A stretch of DNA of 64,000 nt from an uncultured Planctomycetota bacterium (GTDB lineage: Bacteria; Planctomycetota; Planctomycetia; Gemmatales; Gemmataceae), in the NCBI GenBank assembly GCA_963849325.1, contig CAWKHF010000002.1, positions 608,001-672,000 on the forward strand, written 5' to 3'. The translations under genes and the position numbers were made by a program. Position 1 is the stretch's first letter. Every line of letters starts with the position of its first letter. Below are positions 11,913 through 62,938 of the stretch, in pieces. The notes beneath the pieces are model-generated. The model worked only from the letters and a program-made list of their open reading frames with translations, had not been told where the DNA came from and searched no databases.

Positions 11913-11981
11913 TCGTTTAGCCGCGACGCGCAGCGGAGCGCGATGCAGACCCGCGCTCCGCTGCGCGTCGCGGCTAAACGA
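11913..11981. repeat. REP-like palindrome, family A copy 1
   Basis: tcgtttagccgcgacgcgcagcggagcgcg / cgcgctccgctgcgcgtcgcggctaaacga; the same arms occur at 15101 and 62872. Confidence 0.92.
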
Positions 11982-12007
11982 GGATTTTGACCGAGCAAGT
12001 TTGTTCC

Positions 12008-15100: not shown

Positions 15101-15169
15101 CTTCGTTTAGCCGCGACGCGCAGCGGAGCGCGGCAGACGCGCTCCGCTGCGCGTCGCGGCTAAACGAAG
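15101..15169. repeat. REP-like palindrome, family A copy 2 (supplies the stop codon of the 15160-16389 gene)
   Basis: cttcgtttagccgcgacgcgcagcggagcgcg / cgcgctccgctgcgcgtcgcggctaaacgaag. Confidence 0.92.
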
Positions 15170-23862: not shown

Positions 23863-23974
23863 AATGCATTTTTGACCACGGATAACACGGATAACACGGA
23901 TAAAGAAAAACCAGAACGCTTCTGGTGTTTTAATATATCCGTGTTATCCGTGTTATCCGTGGTCAAAGTGCATT
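23863..23974. repeat. Long-loop inverted repeat with 9-bp periodic arms (CACGGATAA type)
   Basis: ttgaccacggataacacggataacacggata ... tatccgtgttatccgtgttatccgtggtcaa, between convergent genes. Confidence 0.9.
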
Positions 23975-40459: not shown

Positions 40460-40909
40460 TCAGTGCGGCGTAGTCTGTCTCCCTTCAGGGGCTGTCAGCC
40501 GAGCGCGGATGTCCTCGGAGATCTCAATCGACTCCATTTCGTGAGCGCCCGGACGCATCCGGCAGCACACGGCACTGATCCGCCCTTTCGCCACCGGCCT
40601 GCCCTCGTGCGTGAACTCGAACGAGTACGTCACCGATTTGCGACCGACGCGCTCGACGCGCACGGCAATTTCCACCACATCGTCGAAGCGCACCGGACGC
40701 AGAAAATCGCAACTTGCCGACACACGCGGGAAACTGATCGGGTGTTCGCTCCCCATCATCACTACGGAGAGGCCACGCGAACGAAGATATGCCACCTCGG
40801 CGAACTCCATATAACGAAAATAATTACTGAAGTGAATGATGCCGGCCATGTCGGTGTCGGCGAAATCGACGCGGCGGCTGACGCGAAACGGCGCGGACAT
40901 GACAGACAC
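40460..40909 (-). CDS. Acyl-CoA thioesterase (4HBT/YbgC hotdog fold)
   Basis: RVDFADTDMAGIIHFSNYFRYMEFAE; PVRFDD. Confidence 0.9.
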   Translation of the reverse strand: MSVMSAPFRVSRRVDFADTDMAGIIHFSNYFRYMEFAEVAYLRSRGLSVVMMGSEHPISFPRVSASCDFLRPVRFDDVVEIAVRVERVGRKSVTYSFEFTHEGRPVAKGRISAVCCRMRPGAHEMESIEISEDIRARLTAPEGRQTTPH

Positions 40910-40918
40910 CTCCCTGCT

Positions 40919-42208
40919 TCAACGTACATATTGGCCATAGATCGCCGCCGTCTCCGCGGCCATGCGGTCGGCATGGAAGCGAGCGTGGACCGCCTCCTTG
41001 CCCTTGCGGCCTAGCTCGTCGCGGTGGGCGCGATTGTCGAACAACAGCCGCAAGGCGCGGGCCAGGTCGGCCGGATCGTCCGGGTTGACGAGCAGTCCGC
41101 CGCCGGTCGCCTCGATCAACTCCGGGAACGAACCGTGGCGCGGCTGCACCACCGGCACACCGTTGGCCAGCGCCTCCAGCACGTACAGTCCCTTCGGCTC
41201 GCGGTACGTCGTCGGCACCGATAGCACGTCGATGCCGTGGAAGAAACGCACCTTGCTCTCGTGGTCCGGCGACTCGACGTGGAGGAAGTGATCGCCCAGG
41301 CCGTGCTCCTTCATCTTGCGGTGGATGTCCTCGAAGTAGGCCCGGTTGTTGGCGCCGAGCCAGCCGGAGATGTGCAGGCGGCAGTCGTCCATACCGGGCG
41401 TCTGCCGCAAGAGATGGAATGCCTCGGCCAGAACGTGCAGTCCTTTTTCCGGACAAATGCGGGCGAAATAGCCGATCGTGAACGGCCGGGGCTGCTCCGG
41501 CCGTGGCCCGCCGTGGCCGGCGAGGTTGAGTCCGGGATGAACGACATGGATGCGCGCGCGCGGGATGGCGAAATACTCGGCCATGAAGTCGGCGTAGTAA
41601 GCCGACGTGGCGAGGAAGCCGTCGATCTCGCGGCAGTGGACGCGGACCAGGGCCAGCGATCGGCTGCGGTGCGAGGGCGGCAGCGATTCGAGAAAAATGT
41701 CGTCGCCTTGCAGCGAACACAGCACCGGCACGCGGAGTTGCCGCTTCAGCTCGTGGACCATGCCCGACAGCAGCGCGTTGGTGAGGTTGACGATCTCCGG
41801 CTTGACCTCTTCCGCCAGCCAGCTCGACGAGCTTGGCGACTTCCTTTCTTCTGATGGCCGTGCTCGCCTTCGAGCATGGAGATGGTCAGGTCGCCGAGGT
41901 CGTCCGCCTGCGTCTTGACGGCGAAGCGCGACACCCAGCGCAACAGCGGCCGGGCGTCGAGCAGGCGGTCGAGGAACCAGGGCGTGTGGCGGAACAGGCC
42001 GAGCTTCTGCTGCAGATAGACGTTGATGCCGCCGAAGAAGACGCGCTGCTGCGCTGACGTCCGGCTCATCGGTGCGGATGGGCGTGTAGGTGGGGATGAG
42101 CAGCGCATCGTGTCCCTGGCGGACGAGGGCGGCCACCAGGGTGTTGTCGTGCATGCAGCTGCCGCAGAACATGCCGGCGGCGCCTGCGGTGATGTAGGCG
42201 ATGCGCAT
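40919..42208 (-). CDS. Glycosyltransferase family 4 (frameshifted)
   Basis: MRIAYITAGAAGMFCGSCMHDN; ARICPEKG; EPKGLYVLEALANGVPVV. Confidence 0.9.
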   Translation of the reverse strand: MRIAYITAGAAGMFCGSCMHDNTLVAALVRQGHDALLIPTYTPIRTDEPDVSAAARLLRRHQRLSAAEARPVPPHALVPRPPARRPAAVALGVALRRQDAGGRPRRPDHLHARRRARPSEERKSPSSSSWLAEEVKPEIVNLTNALLSGMVHELKRQLRVPVLCSLQGDDIFLESLPPSHRSRSLALVRVHCREIDGFLATSAYYADFMAEYFAIPRARIHVVHPGLNLAGHGGPRPEQPRPFTIGYFARICPEKGLHVLAEAFHLLRQTPGMDDCRLHISGWLGANNRAYFEDIHRKMKEHGLGDHFLHVESPDHESKVRFFHGIDVLSVPTTYREPKGLYVLEALANGVPVVQPRHGSFPELIEATGGGLLVNPDDPADLARALRLLFDNRAHRDELGRKGKEAVHARFHADRMAAETAAIYGQYVR

Positions 42209-42230
42209 GGCCAATCCACTGCGCCGGCCC

Positions 42231-43714
42231 TCAAACGGCGACCTTCTCGGGCACGGCTCGGGGAGGAAGAAGGACAGCAAGAAGCCCGCCAGAAGGACGA
42301 ATCCGACGACCGCCGCCGCGGCATAGGCCATGTCCGTGGCCTCCTGTACCGGCGTGGGTTTGCCGCCGCCCCGCGCCAGCAGGGCCGCCAGCTCATTCGT
42401 CACGAGGGCGAACGAGGTGCCGAGGACGCGGCCGCCGAGGTTGGCGGCGCAGCTCTCGCCGGTGCCGCGGAGGTGAACCGGGTAGACCGTCGGCAGGTAG
42501 TTGCCCCAGAAACTGAACTGGGCCACGGTCAGCAGACCCACGAGGAAGATGCCGGCGTGGAACCAGGTGACCTGCATCGCCTTGCCACCGAGGTTCAATG
42601 AGAACAATTCCCGATTGTGGAGTACGCCGTAGCCGAACACCAGCGGCGCGATCAGAAGGCAGGGCACCAGGAAAAGGCGCAGCAGGTTGCGGCGGCTGAC
42701 GATGTACACGGCCAGGAGGGCCAGCAAGAAGCGGCCGAGGAGGCCGCCAACCTCCTGGAACGTCCCATAGAGACCGGTCATATCGCGCGAGATCGCCGTC
42801 TTCGCCTTCTGGGCCGCCTTGGGGTCGTTGTCGCTCACTTTCTCGGCCTGCGCCTGGTAGGTCGGCATCGCCTCGATCATGTACTGCACCTGCTGGATAC
42901 CGCCGAAGGCCACGCCGTAGCTGCAGGCGAACATCAGGGTCGTCACGATCGTGGTCCGCCTTAGTGCCGGCGAGAACAACTCCGCCACGCTGGGCCGCTT
43001 CAGGGTCCCTTCCGCCTTCCGCCGCGCCCACACCGGCGACTCCGGCATGAACGGCCGAATCAGCAGGAGCGGGATGGCGGGGATCACGCCGGAGAGCAGC
43101 GTGTACCGCCATGTGGCGTGGCCGTTGGCCACCGTGCCGAGCGTGCCGGCGAGGAACTCGGGCATCCGCAAGGCCGGCAGCTGCGAAGCGTACTGGTTCA
43201 AGAGCAGATAGACGCCCGCGACGGTCATGCCGCCGAAGGACGAGAACGCCTGCGTGTAGCCGAGCACCCGTTCGCGCTGCTCCGCCTGCGGAAAAAGCTC
43301 CGCCAGCCAGGCGATGGCCGCCACGAACTCCACGCACACGCCGATCAGGGTCAGGCAGCGGAGGACCAGGAACAGCGGCAGCGACGTCGAGAAACCGGAG
43401 GCAAAGGTAGCGAGGGCGTAGAGGAGGATGCTGAACGTCAAGACGCGGCGACGGCCGAGAAGGTCGGTCAAGTAGCCGCCCACCAGGCCGACCGCCCCGC
43501 CGACCATCATCGGCACCCAAAAGAGCAACCCTTTCCAGTGTCCCCGGGTGGCCGCATCGGCGTTGGGCAGCAACTCGACGAGCAATTCCCGGCCGATGTA
43601 CTGCATGACCAGCAGAACGTAGATGTCGAAGCCAAAGCCGATGGCCGCCATCACGAGGATGAGCCAGTGGGTCAAAGTCAGGCGTTGGCGGGCTGCGCCG
43701 AAAGATACAGACAC
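42231..43714 (-). CDS. MFS transporter (fusion to the GT in the ORF track is probably an indel artefact)
   Basis: GYLTDLLGRRRVL (motif A), ELFP, PESPVW, YPVHLRGTG; about 12 TM segments. Confidence 0.88.
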
Positions 43715-43764
43715 GAGAATCTCCTGATGCCGCCGCGGCACAAGCCGGCAGGCGGAACACGATG

Positions 43765-44310
43765 TCATTCCGGCCGCACGATCTCCAGCAATTCCACCGC
43801 CGGTTGTTCGTCGCAGTGAATCAGGGCGAAACGGCCATACGTCGGTCGCGGGCCGTCGAGGCCGAACCACTCGATCATGGCCGGGCCGGGTATCACGCGC
43901 AGGAAGGCGGTCGGCTCGATGCGCCGCAGTACGTTGGCGTTAATCAAGACCCGGCCCAGCGGCGTTTGCCCGGCGAGGATCTGCTGACGAACCTCCTCGC
44001 TGCAATAGCGGAAATTGACGCGCATCAGGCCGAACATCACCACGCGGCCGCTTCCCTGGAGTGCCAGCAGGATTTTGCGCGAGTAGGAATCGCCGGCGAC
44101 CCGGTACTCCAAAACCCGGACATCGACCACCTCGCCGTGGTGGGCTTCGACGGTCACGGTCATGTGGTGCTCGTGGACGAGCAGACGGTCGTAGGGAGGC
44201 GGAACTCGGCCTGGCGGCACGAGTTCGCCCCGAGTCATGTAGTCGGCTGGCGGAAACAGGGCGAACAGACCTTGGACGTCGGTGCCGGTCGCATCGGGTG
44301 AGAAGTTCAT
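43765..44310 (-). CDS. Chorismate-lyase-like (UbiC/DUF98 fold) hypothetical protein
   Basis: LLVHEHHMTVTVE, YSRKILL, PLGRVL and VELLEI resemble the UbiC/DUF98 pattern. Confidence 0.55.
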   Translation of the reverse strand: MNFSPDATGTDVQGLFALFPPADYMTRGELVPPGRVPPPYDRLLVHEHHMTVTVEAHHGEVVDVRVLEYRVAGDSYSRKILLALQGSGRVVMFGLMRVNFRYCSEEVRQQILAGQTPLGRVLINANVLRRIEPTAFLRVIPGPAMIEWFGLDGPRPTYGRFALIHCDEQPAVELLEIVRPE

Positions 44311-46155
44311 AAGGTTAATTGTAGCAGCGGCGGGGCTGCTGGCTCCGCAGCCGGCGGATTGACGGTCGAGGACGCTATCGACCAGGTAATAGAGCAGCTC
44401 GCGCAGTTCGGTCGGCTCGATGTCGTCGGCGACGGCCTCGGCGCGAGCGCGATACTTCTCGACGAGCTTCTCGGCCTTGTCGAAGACCTGCGCCTTCGTG
44501 AACAACTGCCGCACTCGTTCGACGGGTGGCCGCGGCGGCGTCCTTGTCCGGGCCACGACGCAGCAGCGCCAGCAATTCCGCGCGGTCGGCCGGCGCGCGA
44601 GCCTTCCAGGGCCAGCGCCAGCAGCAGCGTCGGCCGGGCCGCCAGCACGTCCTGGCCGGCGATCAGCTTGTTGTCGCTGTCGCCGTCCCAGTCCTTGAGG
44701 TCGTTGAGGATCTGGAAGGCGACGCCGAGGTGCTTGCTGAAGTCGGCGACGGCCTTTTCGTAGGCGTCGGCCGGCCCGGCCAGGCGCAGGCCGGCGTACA
44801 GGGCCGCCTCGAACGCCGGGGCCGTCTTGAGGGCGTAAATCTTCAGGGCGTCCAGGGCGGTCAGCGTCTTGTCGCCGGCGTCGCGCCAGAGCAGTTCGGC
44901 CCCCTGGCCCTCGGACAGTTTCAGGTGGGCGTCGGACAAGCGGTTGAGGATGTCGGCGGCGCAGTCGCCGCCCAGTTCCTTGCGCTCGCGGCCGACCAGG
45001 CGATAGCCCAGGCCGAGCAGGTAATCGCCGACGTTGATGGCGGTGCCGACGCCGTACTGGCGGTGCAGCGTGTCCGGCCGTAGCGGAAGGTGTCGTCGTC
45101 CTCGATGTCGTCGTGGACGAGCGACGCCTTGTGAAACGCCTCGATGGCCAGGGCGGTGCGCCGCACGCTGTCGGGCAGGTCACAGCCCTCGGCCGAGAGC
45201 GTGCCGGGCGCGCCCTTGAGGGCGTCGTAGGCGGCGAGCGTGATGAACGGCCGCGAACGCTTGCCGCCCTGGCCCAGCCAGTCGTAGGCGATGGTTTCGT
45301 GCTGCGCCAGAGGGTCGGATCGTAGCCGTAACGCGAGGGAAGAAGTTCTGCCCTCGCTTACGCTGCGGCTCGACGAGTTGGGTGCCGCCAGCGGGTGAAG
45401 AGCGCGACCGCGGCGCCAGCCGGCTCAACTCCGGCTCCTCGCAAATCTGATGCGCCGGCCGCAGCAGATGAACGTAGGTCTTCGTCTCGCTTGGCCGGCG
45501 GCGGCGTCTTGCAGGTCGATCAGCTCGGACACCCAGTCGTCATCGACCGACGTGCTCGGCAGTTGCTCGACAGCAGCGGCGCGGCCACGCAGGGGATGCC
45601 GGCCAGCAGAATCTTGTCGATCGCCTTTTCCAGCACGTTCAGGCAGGCGACGCCGACGATGGCATCGACGTGGCCGCTGACGATGATCTTGAGGACGATG
45701 GGCGTGCCTTCGGAGACGAGCACCTTGTAGCCGAGGTCCTCGGCCTTGGTCTTGAAGTCGGCGACGGAGCAGGCGCCGCACTTGCGGCAATCGAGGCCGA
45801 ACTCGTCGTAGTCGGCGGGGCAGCCCTCGGCGTGCTTGAGGCAGTGCGGCAACAGCAGCAGGCGGCGCTTGAAATCGATGGCCTGCACCTGCTCGCGCCA
45901 GAACTCGTTGGTGATGCAGACCATCGCGAAGCCGAGGTACTGCTCGCCCAGGTCCATGCCGCGCAGCAGATCCTCGCCCATCTTCTGCAGGTCCGGCTTG
46001 GTCAGCGGCCGGGCGCGGTCGAGCGTCTGGCCGAGGCGGGCGGCCTCGGCGCGGACGCGGTCGCGCAGCTCGCGCGTCTCCGGGACGACCTTGAGGTGGG
46101 CGGTGCTGGGACGTTTGTCTTTCTTCTCGGCCTTGGGTTCGGCAGCGGTGGCCAC
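44307..46155 (-). CDS. DUF116-polyprenyl synthetase fusion (frameshifted)
   Basis: LLLPHCL..C..CRKCGAC, GVAC (DUF116); [43 protein letters not shown]. Confidence 0.85.
45320..45376. repeat. REP-like palindrome, family B, inside the polyprenyl synthetase gene
   Basis: tcgtagccgtaacgcgaggg / ccctcgcttacgctgcggctcgacga. Confidence 0.7.
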
Positions 46156-46165
46156 GGTGGAGTCC

Positions 46166-48014
46166 TCAGGATGGCCGTTCCGGGTGGGTCAACAGGTCGC
46201 GGTGGGAGAGTTTCTTGCGGGCGCGTCCCAGGGCGGCGACGGAGAAGATTATCGGATAGAGCTTCTCGAAATACCACAGTTTGGCGAAGTAAAACCCGAT
46301 GGGCGTGGGGTCGTACAGGCCGCCGGCCTCTACCCGCTGGACGAGCCAGGCCAGGCCGTTATTCACGGCCGCCTCCGCGTCGGGCCCGGCGTCGAGCAGC
46401 ACTTCGACGGCCAGGGCCGTTTCCTCGATGCTGGACGGCGTGTCCGCGGCCCCGCCCCAGCCGCCGTCGGCGTTCTGTGCGGCCAGCAGCCAGGCGACGC
46501 CGCGGCGGGCCGGCTCGTCCGTTCATCCTATCGAGGTCGCGGTAAGCGGCCAGCACGCGGGCGGTGCCGTAGGTGGGGTTCTCGTCGTCGGGGGCGTGCT
46601 GGTTGCCGAACCAGAGGGGCAGCCAGGAGCCGTCGGGGCGCTGAGTGTCGGCGAGATAATCCAACCCCCACTCCATCGCCACGACGTCGGCAGGCCGCTT
46701 CGCGATTAAGTGTCCAGAATGTTTGGTAGAGCTTGCCGTTGGTTCTTCTATGCCAGGCCATGACGGCCCGCAGAGCGTGAGCGGTCAGGTCGCTGCCGCT
46801 GCGGTCAAAAGGCAGATGCCCCCAGCCACGGCAGAAGGTGGGCCAACCGCCGTCGCCATTTTGCAGAGCCGAGCAACCAGTCCAGCCCTCTCTTGACCGC
46901 ACGGAAGTTTTCCTCTCCCCAACCCGTGTGTTGAAGGGCCAGCAGAGCACCCGGCGTGTCGTCCGCATCCGGCACGCCGCCCGGCAGGTCGGTCCAGGCC
47001 CAGCCGCCGGGGTCGGCCCCCGTGTAGGGATGCCGCTCCTTGTATTGCTGCCCCAGCAGCCAGTCGCGCACTTCGTCGCCTTTGTCCAGCGTGTCCAGGT
47101 CGCCGGCCGCCGCCAGGGCGTTGACCGACAGCGTCGTCACCCAGGTCGCCAGGTTGGTGTCGATCGGCCAGCTGCCGTCGGGCCGCACCGACTTCACCAG
47201 GAACTCGACGCCCTTGCTGACGACCGGATGGTCGGCCCGGCCGATGCTCGCCAGGCCCAGCGTGACGAAGCTGGTCAGCGGCGTCGCTTCGAGGAAGCCG
47301 CCGCTGGACGGCTGGATGTTCTGCAGCACGCGCAGGCTCTTGCCGATGGCCAGCCGGCGCACCAAGCGCAGCCAGCGGGATTCCGCGGCGGCCGATGGTG
47401 ATAGACCGCCTGCCCGATGGCGATGAGGGCCGGCAGGGCGTAGCTGACGACGGGCAGGCGCAGGAAGCGAAACCACGACTGCGGAAAGCACGCCAGCTCG
47501 AACGGCAGCGACGGCACCTCGCTCCAGGACACCAGGCCGGCCAGGGCGCTGGTCATCAGGATCGGCACCGAGAAGGTGCGGTCCTTGCCGTAGCGGGCGC
47601 GGACCGCCTCGGCCAACTCCTCCGGCGTCTGCGCCGTAGCGCGCGTGCAGCCAGTCGCTCGGCTGCGCCGCAAGGCTGGCGGTCGTAGGTCGCGGCCGTT
47701 CCGGCGAGGTGGAAGGCGGCGCGGCAGAGCATGGTCGTCGAGATGTTGCTGAAGCTCTTGACCGTGTCGCCCCAGCCGCCGTCGGCGTTCTGATGCGCCG
47801 CGAGCCAGGCGAGGCCGCCGGCGATGAGCGGATCGAACGATCCGTGCGCGGCGGTCGCTTTCTGGACCAGGGCGAGGGCGCTGACGGCGGTGGCGGTGGA
47901 GAGGGCGGAGGTGGACAGTTCGCCGACCCAGTGGCCTTCCGGAGTGCGTTCGGCGAGCAGGGCGGCGAGGGCGGTTTGGAAGGCCGAATCCAACTGTTCA
48001 ACCGGCGTTGTCAT
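46166..48014 (-). CDS. Squalene-hopene-cyclase-like class II terpene cyclase (frameshifted)
   Basis: [16 protein letters not shown] repeats [37 protein letters not shown] (DxDD); [15 protein letters not shown]. Confidence 0.88.
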
Positions 48015-48507
48015 CGTGCGATTTATCCTGCTGTTTCTCTTCCAGTGCGGCCCGAAGCAGGGGTAATACAGCCTTATCTTTGGGGCGCCCCGCCGCCTCT
48101 TTGGTGGCTATCAAGTGGGACAGAGACAGCAGCTTTACGGGGTACGAATCGACGAGGATCTCCTTGGTGTCATCGATTACTTGCTCATACCCACCGATCG
48201 CGCTCATGACGCCCAACAGGTCCAGGGACTCTGTGCCGATTACCAAGGTGAAATTGCTTCCCAGCTGCAAGGCGCGTTCATCGAAGGTAAAAGGAAGATC
48301 GGGTGGTAAACCTCGGAGACGCGGTTGGAGTGGAGCTAGAACTTGGGCCAGCCGAGCGATGTTTCCAGGTGTTCGGCGGTAGCAAATGTCCAGATCCAGC
48401 GTCGCGACTTGAGCTCCTTGCAAGATGGCACTAACTCCGCCAACTATCACGAACTCAACCTGCCCTTACGCCAGTCTAACGATCATGTCTTTCGCGAAAG
48501 GCCACAT
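47998..48507 (-). pseudogene. Nucleotidyltransferase (toxin-like) with an in-frame TAA at 48466-48468
   Basis: MWPFAKDMIVRLA*GQVEFVIVGGVSA..TLDLDI..LIATKEAAGRPKD. A downstream GTG at 48450 could give a truncated product. Confidence 0.65.
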
Positions 48508-48868
48508 CGTCGCGTGCCTCCCGAAGAAACTGCCTCCATCCCTCATGTCGCTCCAACAATTCGTCCGGCGTCATGGCGCGAGCCTGGGCTATCTGAGTGT
48601 AATCGACATCCCCTTGATGGCCGAGGTCGAAACCGTAAGGCTGGGTGACTCCCGGCGTAAAAGGGAGTTCGCGCGGATACCACAGGCAAGCGAGAACATC
48701 CTCCGGCGTCAAACCTTCGTATTCCGCACAAAGATCCGCCGCCGTCGCTCCGCGAGCACATCGCCCGCAGATGTATTCGACCGTGAGTCGCGTTCCTTTT
48801 ATCACCGGCTTCCCCGCCATGATCGCGGGATTGACGGTGATGCGTTCCAGTAGTTGTTTGTCCGCCAT
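48476..48868 (-). CDS. DUF433 antitoxin-like protein with C-terminal extension
   Basis: ERITVNPAIMAGKPVIKGTRLTV..EYEGLTPEDVLACLWY, then AMTPDELL. Confidence 0.8.
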   Translation of the reverse strand: MADKQLLERITVNPAIMAGKPVIKGTRLTVEYICGRCARGATAADLCAEYEGLTPEDVLACLWYPRELPFTPGVTQPYGFDLGHQGDVDYTQIAQARAMTPDELLERHEGWRQFLREARDDVAFRERHDR

Positions 48869-48878
48869 ATCGACTCCC

Positions 48879-49912
48879 TCAAATCTCCAGCTCATCCAGC
48901 GCATCCATCAGCTTGTCGAGGTCGTCCTTCGGCCCTTGCGGCTTGTCCGCCTGCCGCTTGGGGATGCCGACCGTCAGGCCGACCGCCTCGCCGGCCGTCG
49001 GCGACCAGTTCGCGGTCGCGCTCCTGCGCGGCCATCGCCAAGGCGTCGCCGCCGCCGAACAGCTTGCGTCAGGTCGATCTTCAAGCCGCTGATGTTGCCG
49101 ACCGGGGCGCCGGCGATGGCCGGCGTCTTGTAATCGGGGAACATGATGGCCTGTTCGGGACAGACCCGGCTGCACGCCGGGCAGCCGCGCTTGCAGTTGT
49201 CCTGGTTCTCGACGACAAGACGGTCCAGCTTGTCCACGCCGTAGACGCCGAACAGGCAGAAATCGAGGCACTCCATGCAATTCGTGCAGCGGCTGTAGTC
49301 GATCACCGGATACCAGCGGCGCCCCGGCTGTTGCAGCAGTTGCTCGGAGGAAAATTCCGTCTGGGGTTTGGCCGGTTCCTCGTCGCGGAGATAGCGGCCC
49401 AGCTGCACGAGCGTCGGGTTGCCCTGAATCCAGGTTTTCAGCTGCGTCTCGCGCCGCTCGCGGCACTCCGCGGCGATGCGGCGAACTTCCTCGACGTAGA
49501 CTCGTAGTCGCCGTGGTCGCGCAGGTCGAGAGCAGTAGATGTGGCGGTCGGGCACGTCGACGGCGCCGATGCCCTTGGGCGGCTCCGGTTCGCCGTCCTC
49601 CTCGTCCTCCTCGCCTCGGCCGGCGGCTTGATCTGGTTTTCGCCGTAGTGGCCCTTGATGCCGTCGCGGTCGAGCAGCCAGAAGGCGGCGCGCGGGAACA
49701 TCCAGCGCCAGGACGACCATGTCGCCCTGGACCGACTCCAGGAACAGCCGGCCGGTGTGCTCGGCGTCCAGGTCGTACAGGTAGGGCACGATCGACACGT
49801 CCAGGCCCGGCTCCATGATGAGGGCGGCGGCGATGCTCTCCTCCAGGGCCCGCTTGGCGGGGTTCTTGCCCTGGGCCTGCGACAGGACGACGGTCAGGCG
49901 TTGGCGGCTCAT
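48879..49912 (-). CDS. 4Fe-4S dicluster ferredoxin-domain protein (frameshifted)
   Basis: RWYPVIDYSRCTNCMECLDFCLFGVY; NCKRGCPACSRVCPEQAIMFP. Confidence 0.88.
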
Positions 49913-49921
49913 GGTGTCAAC

Positions 49922-50385
49922 TCAATCCTCGGTGTTGATCTTGCCCTTGATCAGACGCTGCGTCTTCTCCCAGTTGTCCGCCAGGAACTGATAGTATTCG
50001 TCCACGTCCCACAGACTCGTCGCCGGCGCAGTCCATCTCGAACAGCCAGCCGGCGCCGTAGCCGTCGACGTTGATGCCGGAGGGGTCTTGCAGCAACTCC
50101 GGGTTGAACGCGACGAGCGTGCCGGCCAGCGGGGCGAACAGGTCGGAGACGGCCTTGGACGTTTCGATGTGGCCGATCTGCTGCAGCAGCTTCGACGCGG
50201 TCGCCGGCGTTGACCTGCCAGTCGAGGAAGTACACGTCCTGCATCAGCCGGACGGCGTAGGACGTGAAGCCGAAGCGCAGCCGGCCGCCCTCACAGCGGC
50301 ACCACATGTGATTGCGCGCGTAGCGCAGCCCGCCCGGCAGCACGGCGGGGAACTTGCCCATCAGGAAGGTCAGGTCGTCGGGCAT
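49922..50385 (-). CDS. Glycine cleavage H-like (lipoyl/acyl carrier) protein (frameshifted)
   Basis: RYARNHMW, RFGFTSYA, IETSKAVSDLFAP (lipoyl Lys position retained), INVDGYGAGWLF. Confidence 0.85.
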
Positions 50386-50398
50386 GACTGCCACAAGT

Positions 50399-50471
50399 TC
50401 ACCGCGAGACGCGAGACGCAGGAATGACAAGAGTACATCATTCGTTCCCTGCGCCTCGCGTCTCGCGGTGA
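50399..50471. repeat. Intergenic inverted repeat
   Basis: tcaccgcgagacgcgagacgcagg / cctgcgcctcgcgtctcgcggtga. Confidence 0.8.
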
Positions 50472-50477
50472 TCTCTT

Positions 50478-51811
50478 TCAGGTGTAGCGCGTGCTGCGGT
50501 ACTGCGGCTCGAAGAACACCGGCAGCAGCCGATCCACCTGCAACAACCCCTCGCGCGTCAGCTCCACGCCGTCCGGCCGTGCGCGTCAGGAAGCCGCTCG
50601 CGCTTCCAGCTCGCTCGAAGCCGTCCGCGAAGCTCTCCAGGATATCCGCGCCGAACTTGTGGCGGAAGTAGGCCGGCTCCAGCCGGCCGGTTTTGAGCTG
50701 CAGGATCATCTCGCGGATCAGCCGCTGGCGCGGCGTCGACCGGCAGCGCCCGGCCCAGCGGCAGCTCGTCCCTGTCGCAGCATGCTCGACGTACTGCTCC
50801 CAGCGTATCGACGTTCTGGACGTGGACGCCGTGGACGTGGCCGAACGAGGCGACGCCGGTGCCGAACATGTCGGCCCCGTGCCACAGGCTGTCGCGGTAG
50901 ACGAAGCGGCAGCGCTGCCGGTCCTTGACCAGCGTGTAGGCGCTGGAGACCTCGTAGCCCGCCGGCGATCATCTGTCGAAGGCGTAGTTGACCCAGGCCC
51001 GCTTGGTCGGCCAGTCGGCGATCGGCCATGGCCGGCTCGTCCTGGCCGATCACCTGCAGTTCCTGCGAGAAGACGCGTGTTGAACGGCAATTCCATCTGG
51101 TAGATGGTGACGCTGTCGGGCGCCAGGGCGAGCGTCTTGCGCACGCACTGTCTTCCAGTTGTCCCACGTCTCGCCGACCATGCCGGCGATCAGGTCGATG
51201 TTGATCTGCTCGAAGCCGAGGTCGCGCGCCCAGCCGTAGGCGCGGTAGATCTCCTCTTCGAGATGGGCCCGGCCGTTGAATTCGAGGATCTTCGGGTCGA
51301 AGTTCTCGACGCCGAGGCTGAGCCGGGTCACGCCGAGCTCGCGCAGCGCTTCGAGCTTGTGCTGCTGCAGCGTGCCCGGCTCGCACTCGAAGGTCACTTC
51401 CTCGGCGCCGTCCCACGGCAGGACTGCCTGCAGCCGCTCCATCAGGCCGCGCAGCTGCGCCGGCGCTGAGGTACGACGGCGTGCCGCCGCCGAAGTAGAC
51501 GTAGTTGCAGCGGCCGGCCGCCGACGAGCGGGACGCGGCTGTACAGCTCGACTTCCTTGACCAGGGCGTCGAGGTAGGTTTCCACGTCGCGGGCGTTCTT
51601 GTCGGTGTAGACGCGGAAGTAGCAGAACTTGCAGCGCTTCCGGCAGAACGGGATGTGCAGGTACAGCCCCAGCGGCGTGCCGGGCTGCGGCGGCCGCGTC
51701 GAGGGCGGCGCGGGCGTCGGGCAGGTGGGCCGGCTTCCAGGCCGAGAACGGCGGATAGTTGGCGACGAAGTAGTTGCCCAATCCTGTAGACTCATCACAA
51801 GTCTTTGTCAT
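50478..51811 (-). CDS. HemN-like radical SAM enzyme; N-terminus supplied by the integrated element (frameshifted)
   Basis: [51 protein letters not shown]; ends [10 protein letters not shown]. Confidence 0.9.
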
Positions 51812-51841
51812 ATAAGCACTTCCGGCAACAGTGAAAAACGT

Positions 51842-51888
51842 TTGACACGGAATTGACACGGAATGGCACCTTGCCTACACTGTAGGCA
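51842..51888 (+). promoter_or_regulatory. Left arm-type repeats overlapping the integrase promoter
   Basis: TTGACACGGAA x2 (51842, 51853); TTGACA(51853)-17 nt-TACACT(51876); palindrome tgcctaca-c-tgtaggca (51872-51888). Confidence 0.75.
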
Positions 51889-51940
51889 GGTGGTTTTGGG
51901 GAACCGTAAGGTACAACAGCAAGCAGCGGAGAACCGAATC

Positions 51941-53016
51941 ATGGCACGCAAGAGCCGGGTCCGTGGTGGTGGGAGGCGAGACAACAATGGTTCGTCACGC
52001 ACAAGGGCAAGCAAGTCCCTCTTGGCAAGGATGAGGCGGAAGCTCGCCGTCAATGGCACTTCCTTGAAGCAAGTGCCCAAACGCATACGGCAGGTGACGG
52101 CAACCTCTTCGTTGCCCTTGCCGACAACTTCCTTGACTGGATCAAGCGGCACAAGAAACCGAAGACGTTCAGCGTCTATCGTATCCATTTGGAGGCGTTC
52201 GGCAAGGTGCATCCTACGGTCGCTGTCCACGAATTGAAACCTCATCATGTTGACGCTGTTGTCCAGCTTCATCCGACCTGGGGCAAGAGTACGATTCGTG
52301 GGTTCATGGTGGCTGTGAACACTTGCCTGAATTGGGCAGTTAAGCAAGGGTTCACGACACGGAACCCGCTCCATCGTCGTCTGACCATCCCCGCCATCGT
52401 CAGCCGTGGCGGTCAGAAGGATGTACCGATCCCGCCGGAGGACTACGCCGTGATGCTCGCCCATGCGAACCCGAACCTGAGAGACTTCATCATCGCTTGT
52501 CGCAATACTGGCACTCGCCCTGAGAACGTAGCAGCGGCGACAGCGAAGGACTACCACAAGGAAGCGGCTTGTTGGGTTCTCGGAACGCATAAGACGGATG
52601 AGGATGGTAGCAGTCTCGTCATCCACTTGAACCCGACGATGGTAGCTTTGACGGAGCGGTTGATTGCCAAGTACCCGGAGGGTCCGTTGTTCAGGAACAA
52701 CCAAGGGAACCCCTGGCGGGATGAGGTATGGGGCAAGGCAATGGCGGGGTTGAAAAAGACGCTGGCGGCGAAGGGTATCAAGTTGAAGAGCCGGGGAATC
52801 ATGTATGGTTTCAGGCACGGTGTAGCGACCGATCTACTTGAGGCGGGAGTACCAGAGGCGCACGTTGCCGCAATCCTGGGTCACAAGTCCACGGTGATGA
52901 TCCACAAGCATTACAGCCATTTGACCAGTCGTCACGCTGCTTTGAAAGTACATCTTGAACATATCCAACCGACAGCGGGCGAAGTCACAACCGGAGATGC
53001 TTCAACCCCGCAATGA
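51941..53016 (+). CDS. Tyrosine recombinase/integrase (one frameshift within the first 7 codons)
   Basis: MARKS..PWWWEARQQWFVTHKGKQVPLG arm-binding-like N-terminus; TGTRPEN (R), HKT (K), YGFRH, LGH, KHYSH (Y). Confidence 0.93.
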
Positions 53017-53275
53017 CGGTTGTTGTCTGCCGTGGTAATCGCACAGACCCTCGCATACCTGGCGAGGGTTTTTCATTGGTACATGACGGAGCGGACGGGA
53101 ACCGGCGACGTTCCTTGTACGCCGTCACGCTGGCGGCGTAAATCACTTTCTTCGCTCCGACCGTATGCCCGTCAAGTTCGCCAGCGTCAATCAGTTTGTA
53201 GACTCTGCGACGTGAACAGCCAAGTCGTTCAGCGGCTTGCAAAGTGGTCAGTAGTTCGTTCGTGGTGCCGTTCAT
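52985..53275 (-). CDS. Excisionase-type HTH (HTH_17) protein
   Basis: LLTTLQAAERLGCSRRRVYKLIDAGEL; convergent with the integrase and overlapping its 3' end. Confidence 0.85.
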   Translation of the reverse strand: MNGTTNELLTTLQAAERLGCSRRRVYKLIDAGELDGHTVGAKKVIYAASVTAYKERRRFPSAPSCTNEKPSPGMRGSVRLPRQTTTVIAGLKHLRL

Positions 53276-53406
53276 GGTCCGGCACTTCTACGCCGTTTTG
53301 TTGACTGTCTCAAGTGAGGGTCATCCACTTTGTTTGGCAAAGCTATGGTCGGTCTGATTAGATAATCCACGGCGGCGACAATACAAACCATGAACAAAGG
53401 AACAGC

Positions 53407-53769
53407 GTGATAACAGCCGAAAAAGTGATTTCTGCATTCAAGACAAAGTACCCTGTCGTGAGGTATCAAGACTTCTATTTGGCGGGGAAAAACTACCTGA
53501 ACATACGGAGCAAGTCCGAGGCGAGCTACCATCGGAAGACAAAGCGGTATGAGTTCGGTATGCCCAGACGGGATTATGACAGGTATCTCCGTATGGTCAA
53601 AGAAGGGCGACAGGTGTACTCTCTGATAATCGAGAGCAAGTCCGACACCTTGTACATTGCCAAGCTCTCAGACTTGGCGGCGTATGCTCGGATGTACGAT
53701 GGTGACAAAGTGGACAAGGGCGGGAGCGTATTCCTGCCAAGAGACAGGTACAGGAAAGTGGAAGTCTGA
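53407..53769 (+). CDS. Hypothetical basic protein (possible degenerate PD-(D/E)xK fold)
   Basis: 120 aa; AAAGGA RBS; QDFY....YLNIRSK..YHRKTKRYEFG. Confidence 0.65.
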   Translation: MITAEKVISAFKTKYPVVRYQDFYLAGKNYLNIRSKSEASYHRKTKRYEFGMPRRDYDRYLRMVKEGRQVYSLIIESKSDTLYIAKLSDLAAYARMYDGDKVDKGGSVFLPRDRYRKVEV

Positions 53770-53835
53770 AAAAGAAGATGCCCGGTTGTGTTCAGCAACC
53801 GGGCGGTGATTTGATTCACAGAAGCGGCGGCAACC

Positions 53836-54618
53836 ATGAACCACGAAACAGCAATCTATGGTAGTATCCCAAATCAGCTTTTTCAACAGCAACCGGAGTG
53901 CGGTCGCAAGTTTGGTTACCGGCAACCGCATGGATGGACTACGCTACTCGGCTATTGGCGGGAGTCATCCAAGCTATGCCAGTTGATCGACTTGAACAGC
54001 CAGTTGCGGAAGCGGGACTACACCTGGGCGGTATCTCTGAATATCGAGCATGTACTTGACGTGGCGGAAGTCAAGCGAGTCTGGAAACATATCTGCCGTG
54101 AATTGCGTCGGCGAGATGTAGTGGCTCTTTGGCTTCGTGAACCTTCACCTGAGAACCACGTCAACTACCATCTCCTAATCGCCAGCGATCAGATGAAACT
54201 TGAATTGGCGGATGCCATTGACGCTAGTATCCCCGAAGGTATCAAGCACCACAAGCAGATTGACGCCATTCACGATGAATGGAGCCATGCCAGATACATC
54301 GTCAAGGCGAAGGTCAAGGCATACGTTGACGGCAAGTTTCTTCTCGACAAGTACAAGGACAAGCGGCTGTTGTTCGTCAAGAAAAGCGGTCTGCAAAAGT
54401 ACGGCGTCATTGGTCCATTCTGGGTTCGTCCGGTAGGCGAGCTATGGCAGACCATCATCGCCAGAGAGAAGCGGATTGCTGACGGACTGGAATCGCCGGG
54501 GGTACGAGCGGAAGTGGAACACCTGTACGAGCTACTTGACGGCACGGTATCGAGACGACAGATAGAGCGGTCGCTGGGGTTCCACGGTGGCACCGTGGGG
54601 AAGGTCGCTACACTATAG
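53836..54618 (+). CDS. Putative HUH-superfamily rolling-circle Rep-like protein
   Basis: AVSLN (motif I-like), WLRE...HVNYHLLI (motif II-like), ARYIVK (YxxK motif III). Confidence 0.6.
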   Translation: MNHETAIYGSIPNQLFQQQPECGRKFGYRQPHGWTTLLGYWRESSKLCQLIDLNSQLRKRDYTWAVSLNIEHVLDVAEVKRVWKHICRELRRRDVVALWLREPSPENHVNYHLLIASDQMKLELADAIDASIPEGIKHHKQIDAIHDEWSHARYIVKAKVKAYVDGKFLLDKYKDKRLLFVKKSGLQKYGVIGPFWVRPVGELWQTIIAREKRIADGLESPGVRAEVEHLYELLDGTVSRRQIERSLGFHGGTVGKVATL

Positions 54619-54714
54619 GTGGTATGCAAAATTGGAACACAACCGAAGAGGTTGAGCAACCAGGAACAAGCGGGACAGCGGGAACCTCGCTACACCATAG
54701 GTAGTATGCCAAGA

Positions 54715-54972
54715 CAGCGGTGACAGGTACATCAAGATCAGCGGTGACAAGTACCACTTCATCAAGATCAGCGGTGACAGGTACATCAAGATCAGCGGTG
54801 ACAAGTACCACTTCATCAAGATCAGCGGTGACAGGTACATCAAGATCAGCGGTGACAGGTACATCAAGATCAGCGGTGACAGGTACATCAAGATCAGCGG
54901 TGACAGGTACATCAAGATCAGCGGTGACAGGTACATCAAGATCAGCGGTGACAGGTACATCAAGATCAGCGG
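54715..54972. repeat. Tandem array of ten units: 8 x 24 bp and 2 x 30 bp variant
   Basis: A=CAGCGGTGACAGGTACATCAAGAT, B=CAGCGGTGACAAGTACCACTTCATCAAGAT; order ABABAAAAAA. Confidence 0.97.
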
Positions 54973-55192
54973 CTTCTTTGGGTTGTTTCGTTTCGTGGAC
55001 CGTGCCAGCCCGCTGTGTACGTTTTCGACAAATTGGAAGTGATTTCAGGCAAAGTACCCTGTATCTGACGTTATTAACGCCATAGGTCCGTGGTATCTCC
55101 CCATCATCTCCGATACTCCCTTGTCCCGATGATGCCATTCTGAACGCCTAGAATCGCTTCTGAGGCGGGTTGCGGTCCCCAAAGAGGGGATA

Positions 55193-55691
55193 GGGCTGTC
55201 TATCGAGCCGGAAAGCGACAGCGGAGCGACGGGGAGGGCGGCGAGTAGTACCTGGGTGACGGGGGGATAAGGGGAGCGAAAACATTGTCGCGCCGTTTCG
55301 CCTGACCGGCTTCAACTCCGTGTGCGCTATTAAGCAGCATTTTAATTGTTTCGGGGCGGAGAGATGTACCTGGCGGTCATGGTCCTGCCGGTCTCGGTCA
55401 AGGTGGTCGTGGTCGTGGTCAAGGCGGCGAGATGTACCTGGCGGTCATGGTCGGTCAGTGTTCGGGGGTCGATCCCGTTACGGGATTTCCCGCAACGGGC
55501 TGTATGGGTTCGTGGCGAGAATGCCCCCTCTGACGCCTCCCTGTCGCTTCCACGGTGACGGCGAGAACCGATCCGAGTATCGGGCTGTCTATCGAACCGG
55601 AAGCGGCGTAGGGGCGACGGGGAGGGCGGCGAGATGTACCTGGGAAACGGCGGCGAGCATCCGGTTGAAGGCGGCGGCGAGTAGTACCTGG
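55193..55691. repeat. Dispersed motif GGCGG(C/A)GAG(AT/TA)GTACCTGG x5 and a ~63-bp imperfect direct repeat
   Basis: Motif at 55237, 55355, 55423, 55625 and 55673; long repeat 55193-55256 vs 55582-55644. Confidence 0.85.
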
Positions 55692-55700
55692 CTATCGTGG

Positions 55701-55880
55701 TCGAGATCGTGGTCATGGTCGAGATGTCGAGATCGTGGTCATGGTCGAGATGTCGAGATCGTGGTCATGGTCGAGATGTCGAGATCGTGGTCATGGTCGA
55801 GATGTCGAGATCGTGGTCATGGTCGAGATGTCGAGATCGTGGTCATGGTCGAGATGTCGAGATCGTGGTCGAGATCGTGG
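55701..55880. repeat. Tandem array of 6 x 26 bp plus partial copies
   Basis: TCGAGATCGTGGTCATGGTCGAGATG, six perfect copies at 55701-55856. Confidence 0.97.
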
Positions 55881-55921
55881 AACCACAGCGGTTAGTTAGT
55901 GGAAAAGAAGTTGCCCGAACC

Positions 55922-55973
55922 TTGACACGGAATTGACACAGAACCCCCCGAAATGACACGGAATTGCACGGAA
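55922..55973 (+). repeat. Right arm-type integrase-binding repeats
   Basis: TTGACACGGAA, TTGACACAGAA, ATGACACGGAA, TTGCACGGAA; same orientation as the left arm. Confidence 0.8.
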
Positions 55974-56019
55974 AACGGGGCGAGACAGGCGAACAGTACC
56001 ATCCACAAAGACTGTATCT

Positions 56020-56106
56020 CTAGGACTTTACGGCGATGAAGACTTGTACACGGTTGACGACGAAGTAATTGCCGAGACCCGTCTTTTCTTGCGTGGCTTC
56101 GGTCAT
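56020..56106 (-). pseudogene. Displaced native 5' end of the radical SAM gene
   Basis: [16 protein letters not shown] followed by element-derived VNRVQVFIAVKS*. Confidence 0.9.
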
Positions 56107-56270
56107 CGATGCACCCTGGATCGAGGCGGGGAGGCAGGTTGGCGAGACGGCGGATACCTTCTTCTATCGTACATCGCGGGCCCGGCGAAGCAAGTCGCCG
56201 ATGCGCGGGACCAGCGGGAGACAGTCAACCCCTCTTCCCCCGATACGCCTCCGCTCCTTATTCTGACAGC

Positions 56271-57643
56271 ATGCAACGCCCTCATCTGCTGTTCGTGACG
56301 GGGAAGCTGGCCGAGCCTTCGCTGCGGCACATGCTGGACGAGCTGGCGCCGCGCCGGCTTTGACTTCAGCGTGGCCGTGCTGCCGATCACGGTCGTCGCC
56401 CTGGCCACAACCCCCTGGATTGCGCCGCCATTTGACGGTCCCTTCGGAGATCGATCGCGTCATTCTCCCCGGTCTCTGTCAGGGAGAACTGGGGCCGGTG
56501 CGCGCGTTCGGCGTTCCCGTGGAGCGCGGCCCTGGCGACCTGCGCGACCTGCCGGACTTCTTCCGCACCTCCAGAGAGCCGTGCAGCGATTACGGATCTT
56601 ACGACATCGCCATTCTCGCCGAGATCAATCACGCTCCCCGTCTGAACCGTCCGGACATCCTGCGCGAAGCCGTCGCTCTGCACGCCGACGGTGCCGACGT
56701 CATCGACATCGGCTGCGATCCGGGTTCGACGTGGGCGGGCGTCGCCGATACGGTTCGGGCGTTACGCGACGCGGGTCTGCGCGTCTCCATCGATAGTTTT
56801 GATCCGCGCGAGGTCGAGGCGGCGGTCGCCGCCGGGGCCGAACTGGTGCTGAGCGTCAACAGCAGCAATGTGTCCGCGGCTCGCTCGTGGGGCTGCGAGG
56901 TCGTCGTGCTGCCCGACGTGCTCGCCACGCTGGAAGGACTGGATGGCACCGTCGAGAAGCTACAATCCTGGGGGGTAAAGTTTCGGATCGATCCGGTGAT
57001 CGAGCCGATTGGCCTGGGCTTTGCTGCCTCGCTGGGACGCTATCTCGAAGTGCGGCGCCGTTACCCCGATGCCGAGATGCTGATGGGGGTTGGCAACCTC
57101 ACCGAGTTGACCGACGTGGATTCCGCCGGCATCAATGTGCTCCTGCTCGGCTTCTGCCAGGAAGTCGGCATTCGCAGCGTGCTGACGACGCAGGTCATCA
57201 ACTGGTGCCGCAGCTGCGTCCGCGAATTGGATCGGGCACGCCGGCTGGTGTACCATGCCTGTACGCGCCGCGTGCTGCCCAAGCACGTCGAGCCGGACCT
57301 ACTCTTGCTGCGCGATCCGAAGCTGCGCACGCATGGCGAAGCGATGCTCAGCGATTTGGCCTCCCGGATCGCGGATCGCAACTTCCGCCTGTTCGCCGAG
57401 CGCGGCCTGCTGCACGTCCTCAATAACCAGATGTTCCTGCAAGGCGGTGATCCGTTCGCGCTGTTCGAGCAGATGCAGCAGCGCGCGGACATCGATCCCG
57501 CGCACGCTTTCTATCTCGGCTACGAGATGGCCAAGGCGGTGACCGCGTTGACGCTGGGCAAGAACTACACGCAGGACCAGGCGCTGCGTTGGGGCTTTCT
57601 GACCGTGAAGGAGCGTTCCCGTCACGATGGCCCCCGTGATTGA
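56271..57643 (+). CDS. Dihydropteroate-synthase-like protein (DUF6513, pterin-binding, DUF4346; methanopterin-pathway-associated family; 5' frameshifts)
   Basis: LFVTGKLAE; GPGDLRDLP; GADVIDIGC; MGVGNLTELTDVDSAG; HAFYLGYEMAKA; GKNYTQD. Confidence 0.8.
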
Positions 57644-62871: not shown

Positions 62872-62938
62872 GTTTAGCCGCGACGCGCAACGGAGCGCGG
62901 GCGTCCTGCCCGCGCTCCGCTGCGCGTCGCGGCTAAAC
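62872..62938. repeat. REP-like palindrome, family A copy 3
   Basis: gtttagccgcgacgcgcaacggagcgcgggc / gcccgcgctccgctgcgcgtcgcggctaaac. Confidence 0.92.

Follow-up and report, generated by a model that had tools for sequence, protein, structure and literature searches.

In this study, we analysed 64,000 nucleotides from an uncultured Gemmataceae bacterium of the phylum Planctomycetota (assembly GCA_963849325.1, contig CAWKHF010000002.1, positions 608,001 to 672,000), referred to as the window in the following. We are highly confident that positions 51773-56057 of the window are a small site-specific integrative element, measuring 4295 bp from attachment site to attachment site, which is integrated into a HemN-like radical SAM gene at the 5' end and supplies this gene with a replacement start. 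Direct repeats are found at both ends, and an integrase by one end. As the integrase is accompanied by an excisionase-like gene of helix-turn-helix (HTH) type, a probable HUH-type replication initiator (Rep) and repeat arrays, we regard it as an integrative plasmid-like replicon.

We propose the following course of events. The integrase would have recombined the attachment site of the element (attP) with the sequence encoding N-Y-F-V (codons 13-16) of the HemN-like radical SAM gene, which is conserved and opens a terpenoid-type operon of 11 kb in this Gemmataceae planctomycete. The attP side would carry a surrogate ribosome-binding site, a start codon and the first 13 codons. With such a surrogate 5' end, integration would leave the chimeric gene intact, whereas the native start would be stranded beyond the element's far end together with the region upstream of it.

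The insertion starts inside codons 14-16 of the radical SAM gene. A preliminary description of this DNA had placed a core repeat at 51763 and 56058, 4295 bp apart; we found this exact 10-bp core, CGACGAAGTA, at both positions, and it extends to an imperfect direct repeat of 21 bp with two mismatches. The pattern of the repeat, GTTGrCGACGAAGTArTTGCC, has two matches in the window compared to 0.00 expected (100 shuffles). Outside the repeats the G+C content amounts to approximately 0.65-0.69, and between them it falls to 0.49-0.58. A second motif, TGACACrGAA, reveals five exact matches in the window (0.15 expected), which are confined to the two element ends and share one orientation: two copies are located 80-100 bp from the core of attL, and for the other three the distance to the core of attR is 95-135 bp. 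This placement appears to be the layout of arm-type integrase sites.

Inside the element, by the arm repeats of the right end, a decayed copy of the attL junction (55885-55943) was observed that includes host-side codons beyond the core (ANYPP). It may be a relic junction, left either by tandem integration and subsequent deletion or by imprecise excision.

A search for the conserved middle part of the radical SAM enzyme covered 61 genomes (its own included), which span the family, the order and the class, and was positive in 54. Native starts were surveyed in the 29 best foreign loci (L007-L035), of which 27 were readable, one was frameshifted, and one was cut by a contig end. The preliminary description had left room for MTKTCDES, with which the gene begins in the window, being the native start of relatives without the element; none of the 27 readable loci starts in this way. 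In eight genomes of the same genus, the native starts are MTEATQEK (five genomes), MTETTQEK, MTAAAQQEK and MTEAAQQEK. These match the stranded remnant at 56106, which on translation indeed runs into a stop, as had been claimed.

A comparison of 11 loci with the window by blastn revealed an uninterrupted site in nine, eight from the same genus and one from another genus (G018). These nine loci align continuously to 51778-51780 and from 56053 onward, and the overlap is the 21-bp repeat. As for the remaining two loci, G029 matched the gene side only, and the alignment of G035 ran straight into the integrase. On account of the native starts and the continuous empty sites in relatives, the stranded start is considered to be native and the 4.3-kb segment to be an insertion.

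Integrase clade and element-borne starts

The integrase of the element matches Pfam PF00589 (Phage_integrase) with 45.9 bits (cut-off 27.1) and PHROG 1 with E 3.8e-42. In an alignment of four sequences, the columns R186, K211, Y282/R285/H286, H308 and Y318 are invariant and may be the catalytic R, K, H/Y-x-x-R, H and the nucleophile Y, whose pattern they fit; the first H of HxxR would then be a Y. Relatives of the excisionase-like gene hold the same position in four other elements. The pair of integrase and excisionase-like gene is common to these five elements, and their cargo differs.

We searched 400 other genomes of the class and obtained integrase matches at E 1e-40 or better in 44. The integrases of four genomes (G035, G223, G195, G027) are 54-63% identical to that of the window, and the next best reach at most 38%. 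All four close relatives lie immediately next to the same radical SAM gene, at its 5' end; among the integrases of at most 38% identity, the gene was adjoined at none of the 25 loci examined. A collection of 185,579 species yielded eight confirmed loci with seven full-length integrase relatives, four being the contigs already named and three being new. These seven originate from Limnoglobus, Fimbriiglobus, or other Gemmataceae/Gemmatales assemblies, and their integrases are 53-63% identical to that of the window. The neighbourhood that the preliminary description had proposed to look for in related planctomycetes is present in each of the seven, the start of the radical SAM gene lying approximately 155 bp before the integrase match.

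The original 5' end is stranded at the far boundary in the window as well as in G035 and G195. The element of G035 (7086 bp, exact core of 16 bp) has the stranded native start MSVSDQEKTGLGNYFI and the supplied start MTGVEQEK..., and the element of G195 (8408 bp, exact core of 13 bp) has the stranded native start MTVAADQEKTGLGNYFI and a supplied GTG start. In both, the N-Y-F codons hold the crossover, as they do in the window. For the other five elements, no far end was found on the available contig, with none in the 22.6 kb up to the contig end in the case of G223.

All eight elements lie within the first few codons of the radical SAM gene and supply it with an in-frame start. In the window, where such a start had been described before, the ATG at 51811 reads into the radical SAM gene. 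The synonymous recoding of TGLGNY noted there was reproduced too: the codons ACA GGA TTG GGC AAC TAC face ACG GGT CTC GGC AAT TAC, and four of six differ, all without effect on the amino acid. Across the TGLGNYF of the eight element-borne starts, T, G, L and G use three, four, four and three different codons, respectively, with unchanged amino acids. The preceding QEK is kept in seven of the eight, the window copy reading DES. A run of AAGGTG is located a few bases 5' of the start codon in six of the eight elements; its counterpart in the window is GGAAGTG. Synonymous-only variation across eight independent element-borne starts shows that the chimeric gene is translated and that it is under purifying selection, the surrogate codons included. 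The earlier view that selection keeps the enzyme intact gains support from this pattern.

One relative of the same genus (L079, 5640-6295) has an intact gene with an empty site and, approximately 1.2 kb upstream, a second and truncated gene copy. The truncated copy comprises the first ~70 codons (MTEATQEKTGLGKSFV...) and directly adjoins an integrase fragment of this clade (73 residues, N-terminal); pairs of DUF433/PIN-like and RelE-like open reading frames (ORFs) lie between the intact gene and the truncated copy. The fragments are a relic of the same element family, and the order of the parts does not fit a simple integration.

Cargo of the element

In the window element, the integrase and excisionase-like genes are coupled to a tiny Rep replicon; the cargo of its relatives is a different one, of 7-8 kb and more. 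All features are listed in Table 1.

Table 1: Coordinates of the element, its attachment sites and its target in the window.
Feature	Position	Strand	Remarks
Target operon	40484-51811	-	~11.3 kb; from orthologous intact G003 operon (Pfam, NCBIfam) and tblastn onto the window
HemN-like radical SAM gene	~50478-51811	-	First gene of the operon
attL	51758-51778		21-bp imperfect repeat; core 51763-51772 lies in codons Y14-F15-V16 of the radical SAM gene
Element-supplied start codon and first 13 codons	51773-51811	-	ATG at 51811, preceded by Shine-Dalgarno-like run GGAAGTG
Spacer between gene start and integrase start	51812-51940		129 bp; two putative arm-type repeats and an integrase-facing promoter-like site
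Putative arm-type repeats, left end	51843, 51854		TGACACGGAA; inside the spacer
Promoter-like site TTGACA-17-TACACT	51853-51881		Faces the integrase
Tyrosine integrase	51941-53016	+	Starts MARKSR; frame slips by 1 base near 51956-51960; open frame 51910-53013 holds the rest
HTH_17 excisionase-like gene	52985-53275	-	Convergent with the integrase; PF12728 (E 1.7e-9) and PHROG excisionase families
orf120	53407-53769	+	120 residues; no family match
orf260	53836-54618	+	260 residues; probable HUH-type rolling-circle replication initiator
24-bp tandem array	54710-54972		10.5 copies; just after rep
26-bp tandem array	55700-55870		6.6 copies; 100% matches
Decayed copy of attL gene piece	55885-55922		28/38 bases match; abuts the arm repeats
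Putative arm-type repeats, right end	55923-55963		Three copies of TGACACrGAA at 55923, 55934 and 55954
Stranded native 5' end	56020-56106	-	16 native residues from ATG 56106, then 12 element-encoded residues and stop
attR	56053-56073		21-bp imperfect repeat; core 56058-56067
Native upstream region	56107-56271		Now 4.3 kb away from the gene; at most the first ~90 bases align to same-genus relatives

For orf260, 15 homologues were found, with the invariant residues Y111-H112 (HYH) and Y154..K157-A158, which may be the HUH motif and the catalytic Tyr motif. Four homologues were scanned against Pfam PF23343 (REP_ORF2-G2P); one scores above the cut-off (32.2 versus 27.8 bits) and three score just under it. 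The profile of the family matches the SIRV1 Rep structure 2x3g with E 0.0028, and the same structure is the best result of a fold search (E 6.6e-3), which has pMV158 RepB and a circovirus Rep among its top five. The product of orf120 has no match in Pfam or PHROG, and an Atlas search for it gave leads only.

The 24-bp array following the Rep-like gene might represent iterons or an origin. Two 33-bp direct repeats (85% alike) at 54598-54630 and 54680-54712 flank the end of the Rep-like gene, before this array, and are candidate origin or nick-site sequences. An Rfam scan of positions 51500-56500 for a leader RNA or riboswitch gave only two chance-level sR44 rows, which lie inside the 26-bp array.

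A relative of the Rep-like protein is encoded on a 5209-bp metagenome contig (L098), whose terminal overlap of 127 bp indicates that it is circular. The same contig encodes a large serine recombinase of 577 residues, which stands in place of a tyrosine integrase, a resolvase and a leucine-rich-repeat protein. We regard L098 as a further small integrative replicon based on this Rep family. The combination of the Rep relative with a serine recombinase on a circular contig suggests that the family is one of small circular replicons, which associate with integration modules of different kinds. A free form of the element bearing attP was sought via the Rep relatives; among 33 loci (two viral and 31 metagenomic), not one carries the integrase, the excisionase-like gene, orf120 or the GLGNYF piece.

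Mobility and expression

Several observations weigh against our explanation. The element is present as a single copy, with no further copies elsewhere in its own genome. The assembled integrase is frameshifted after codon 6, which, if real, renders the element immobile. The exchange of the otherwise conserved QEK for DES in the surrogate start of the window means that full function of the enzyme is not guaranteed. No consensus promoter facing the radical SAM gene is found in the 129-bp spacer, and scans for promoters and terminators over the element gave counts at the level of shuffled sequences. Finally, orf260 is a probable rolling-circle Rep of the HUH type, an assignment in which we place moderate confidence: its scores are weak, the window protein itself has no Pfam match, and the fold search used a model with a mean predicted local distance difference test (pLDDT) score of 64.

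A truly broken integrase would make the element a fixed, immobile relic and the chimeric gene simply a host gene by now. Along this line, attL and attR differ at two of 21 positions, the integrase of G027 also changes frame (after approximately residue 255), G223 is without a stranded native start in its 22.6 kb, and in the relative of the same genus described above, an integrase fragment that is clearly decayed lies next to a fragment of the gene. However, the frameshift of the window integrase is one among many in this assembly, which consists of 14 contigs with 84.7% marker completeness. We counted at least five frame changes in the 1.3 kb of the radical SAM gene and approximately 17 over the 11.3 kb of the host operon when compared to intact orthologues of G003, and rpoB falls into at least four pieces that lie in different frames (at least three frame changes). 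Since rpoB, an essential gene, is broken likewise, the frameshifts in operon and integrase are regarded as assembly errors, and they do not show that either of the two is dead. For the same reason, we rejected the idea that the operon was pseudogenised by the insertion and is decaying. A single slip in 1.07 kb, sitting by a G run, equals the expectation from assembly noise; the remainder of the integrase has an open frame and retains the invariant columns of catalytic type. The orthologous integrase in G035 begins with MARKSKPWFREERQQWFV, which fits a window protein MARKSR-(x)-PWWWEARQQWFV. We consider an immobile relic unlikely; in the real DNA the integrase frame is presumably intact, and the element can presumably still excise.

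An error-rich assembly might also have joined plasmid and chromosome reads chimerically, so that the insertion would be an artefact of noisy long reads. Such a chimera would not yield a target-site duplication with an in-frame surrogate start, and the same architecture occurs in seven other independently assembled genomes. We attach next to no probability to an artefact and retain a genuine integrative element as our explanation.

The downstream operon, estimated at about 11 kb in the preliminary description, measures approximately 11.3 kb. The gene order of the G003 operon is kept in the window from 51811 down to 40484 (tblastn): the radical SAM gene is followed by genes for a GcvH-like protein, a 4Fe-4S protein, a squalene-hopene-cyclase-like protein, a fusion of DUF116 and polyprenyl synthase, a protein without assignment, an MFS transporter, a GT4 glycosyltransferase and a thioesterase. 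Gaps in the G003 operon are at most 30 bp, with the exception of one of 171 bp. All NCBIfam equivalog matches of the radical SAM enzyme remain below their cut-offs, which assigns it to an unnamed HemN-like subfamily.

Concerning expression, the preliminary description had assumed that the element supplies the promoter of the operon. No such promoter was found; the only consensus site in the spacer faces the integrase. According to our reading of the alignment, a block conserved among the other elements has the sequence TTGGCA-17-TATACT, likewise in integrase direction. The -35 hexamer of the integrase-facing site of the window lies inside an arm repeat, which suggests that the integrase may autoregulate its own gene. 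A 9-bp hairpin (51870-51890) overlaps the -10 region of the site, and this layout would permit self-repression. A strong hairpin with a T run on the minus strand (53780-53804) would hinder read-through from the native promoter. From the selection on the surrogate start, transcription from inside the element follows logically, and on these grounds transcription of the radical SAM gene would now begin there, although the promoter was not located in our scans.

Upstream of the native ATG, alignments to the same genus continue for at most ~90 bases at 74-88% identity (blastn). The upstream gene differs despite this aligned leader, encoding an FG-GAP protein in G003 and a pterin-binding DUF6513 protein in the window. 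These ~90 bases are a candidate for the displaced native leader or promoter.

The geometry would permit a regulatory switch, in which reversible excision and integration let the operon alternate between two sets of promoter and N-terminus, the native one and that of the element. The upstream region that is native to the gene and conserved in the genus has been moved 4.3 kb away, and the surrogate N-terminus is a different one with DES in place of QEK. In passages of Farrugia et al. 2015 (PMC4482086), however, this geometry is interpreted for dusA islands as preservation of the target gene and not as regulation, and no promoter facing the gene was found in the scans of spacer and element. A switch appears improbable to us. 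The same holds for its wider form, by which integration swaps the native leader and QEK for element-controlled expression and DES, such that carriage or loss of the element would switch the amount or activity of the pathway and be exploited by host or element.

Three side observations concern the surroundings. An insert of approximately 880 bp and lower G+C content (0.56-0.58) lies between the genes of the 4Fe-4S and cyclase-like proteins (48000-48900), where the gap in G003 is 30 bp. Two ORFs of the minus strand lie within it, one with DUF433 (48479-48904) and one of 150 residues (48001-48450), and together they are probably a toxin-antitoxin pair. The divergent upstream gene (DUF6513/pterin-binding/DUF4346, 56272-57643) is also frameshifted, near 56360. 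Short palindromic repeats at 11917-11987, 15107-15163, 23868-23968, and 62874-62936 are matched on both strands by intergenic DNA of the same genus and look like a dispersed family of the genus resembling repetitive extragenic palindromes (REP) or miniature inverted-repeat transposable elements (MITE).

Comparison with known integrative elements

Our searches for planctomycete integrative elements and for this radical SAM gene as a target gave no description of this integrase clade. The clade thus appears not to have been described before, and its chromosomal attachment site (attB) is mapped precisely to the N-Y-F-(V/I) codons in a HemN-like radical SAM gene. The element-borne gene starts would represent a clean natural case of selection maintaining such a start. 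Planctomycetes are hard to manipulate genetically. With its conserved target in the chromosome, the compact module of integrase, excisionase-like gene and attP (~1.5 kb) could be of use as a vector for integration.

Integrative rolling-circle plasmids of actinomycetes, of the pSAM2 type, combine an integrase, an excisionase and a rolling-circle Rep on a small integrated replicon and insert into the 3' ends of tRNA genes. The window element follows the same module logic with its integrase, excisionase-like protein and probable rolling-circle Rep. Unlike in pSAM2-type elements, this Rep comes from a different, uncharacterised family with borderline similarity to PF23343 only.

SXT is said to provide a new promoter and 5' coding end, a finding ascribed to Hochhut and Waldor in 1999. 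In contrast to the SXT/R391 integrative conjugative elements of Gammaproteobacteria (~100 kb), the window element is without conjugation genes. Integration of SXT/R391 elements in the 5' end of prfC is mentioned in passages of two reports (PMC2791158, PMC4344509).

The closest parallel is given by the islands and prophages with dusA-associated integrases (DAI). In the passages of Farrugia et al. 2015 (PMC4482086) that describe dusA-specific integrases in more than 200 bacteria, element sequence replaces the 5' end of the target, and the old 5' end marks the island's outer limit. As in these islands, we find a dedicated clade of tyrosine integrases with a single site at which a conserved gene of housekeeping type is entered in its 5' end, a new 5' end supplied by the element, the original 5' end at the outer boundary, and variable cargo. 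By analogy, the mechanism of integration appears to match that of the islands in the 5' ends of dusA and prfC, so this style of integration would be a known one. The differences, as far as the DAI islands are described in these passages, concern target (a HemN-like radical SAM gene instead of dusA), hosts (Gemmataceae planctomycetes instead of Proteobacteria), and size and content, as the window element is far smaller (4.3 kb) and has a Rep-like gene. The likeness is one in the geometry of integration.

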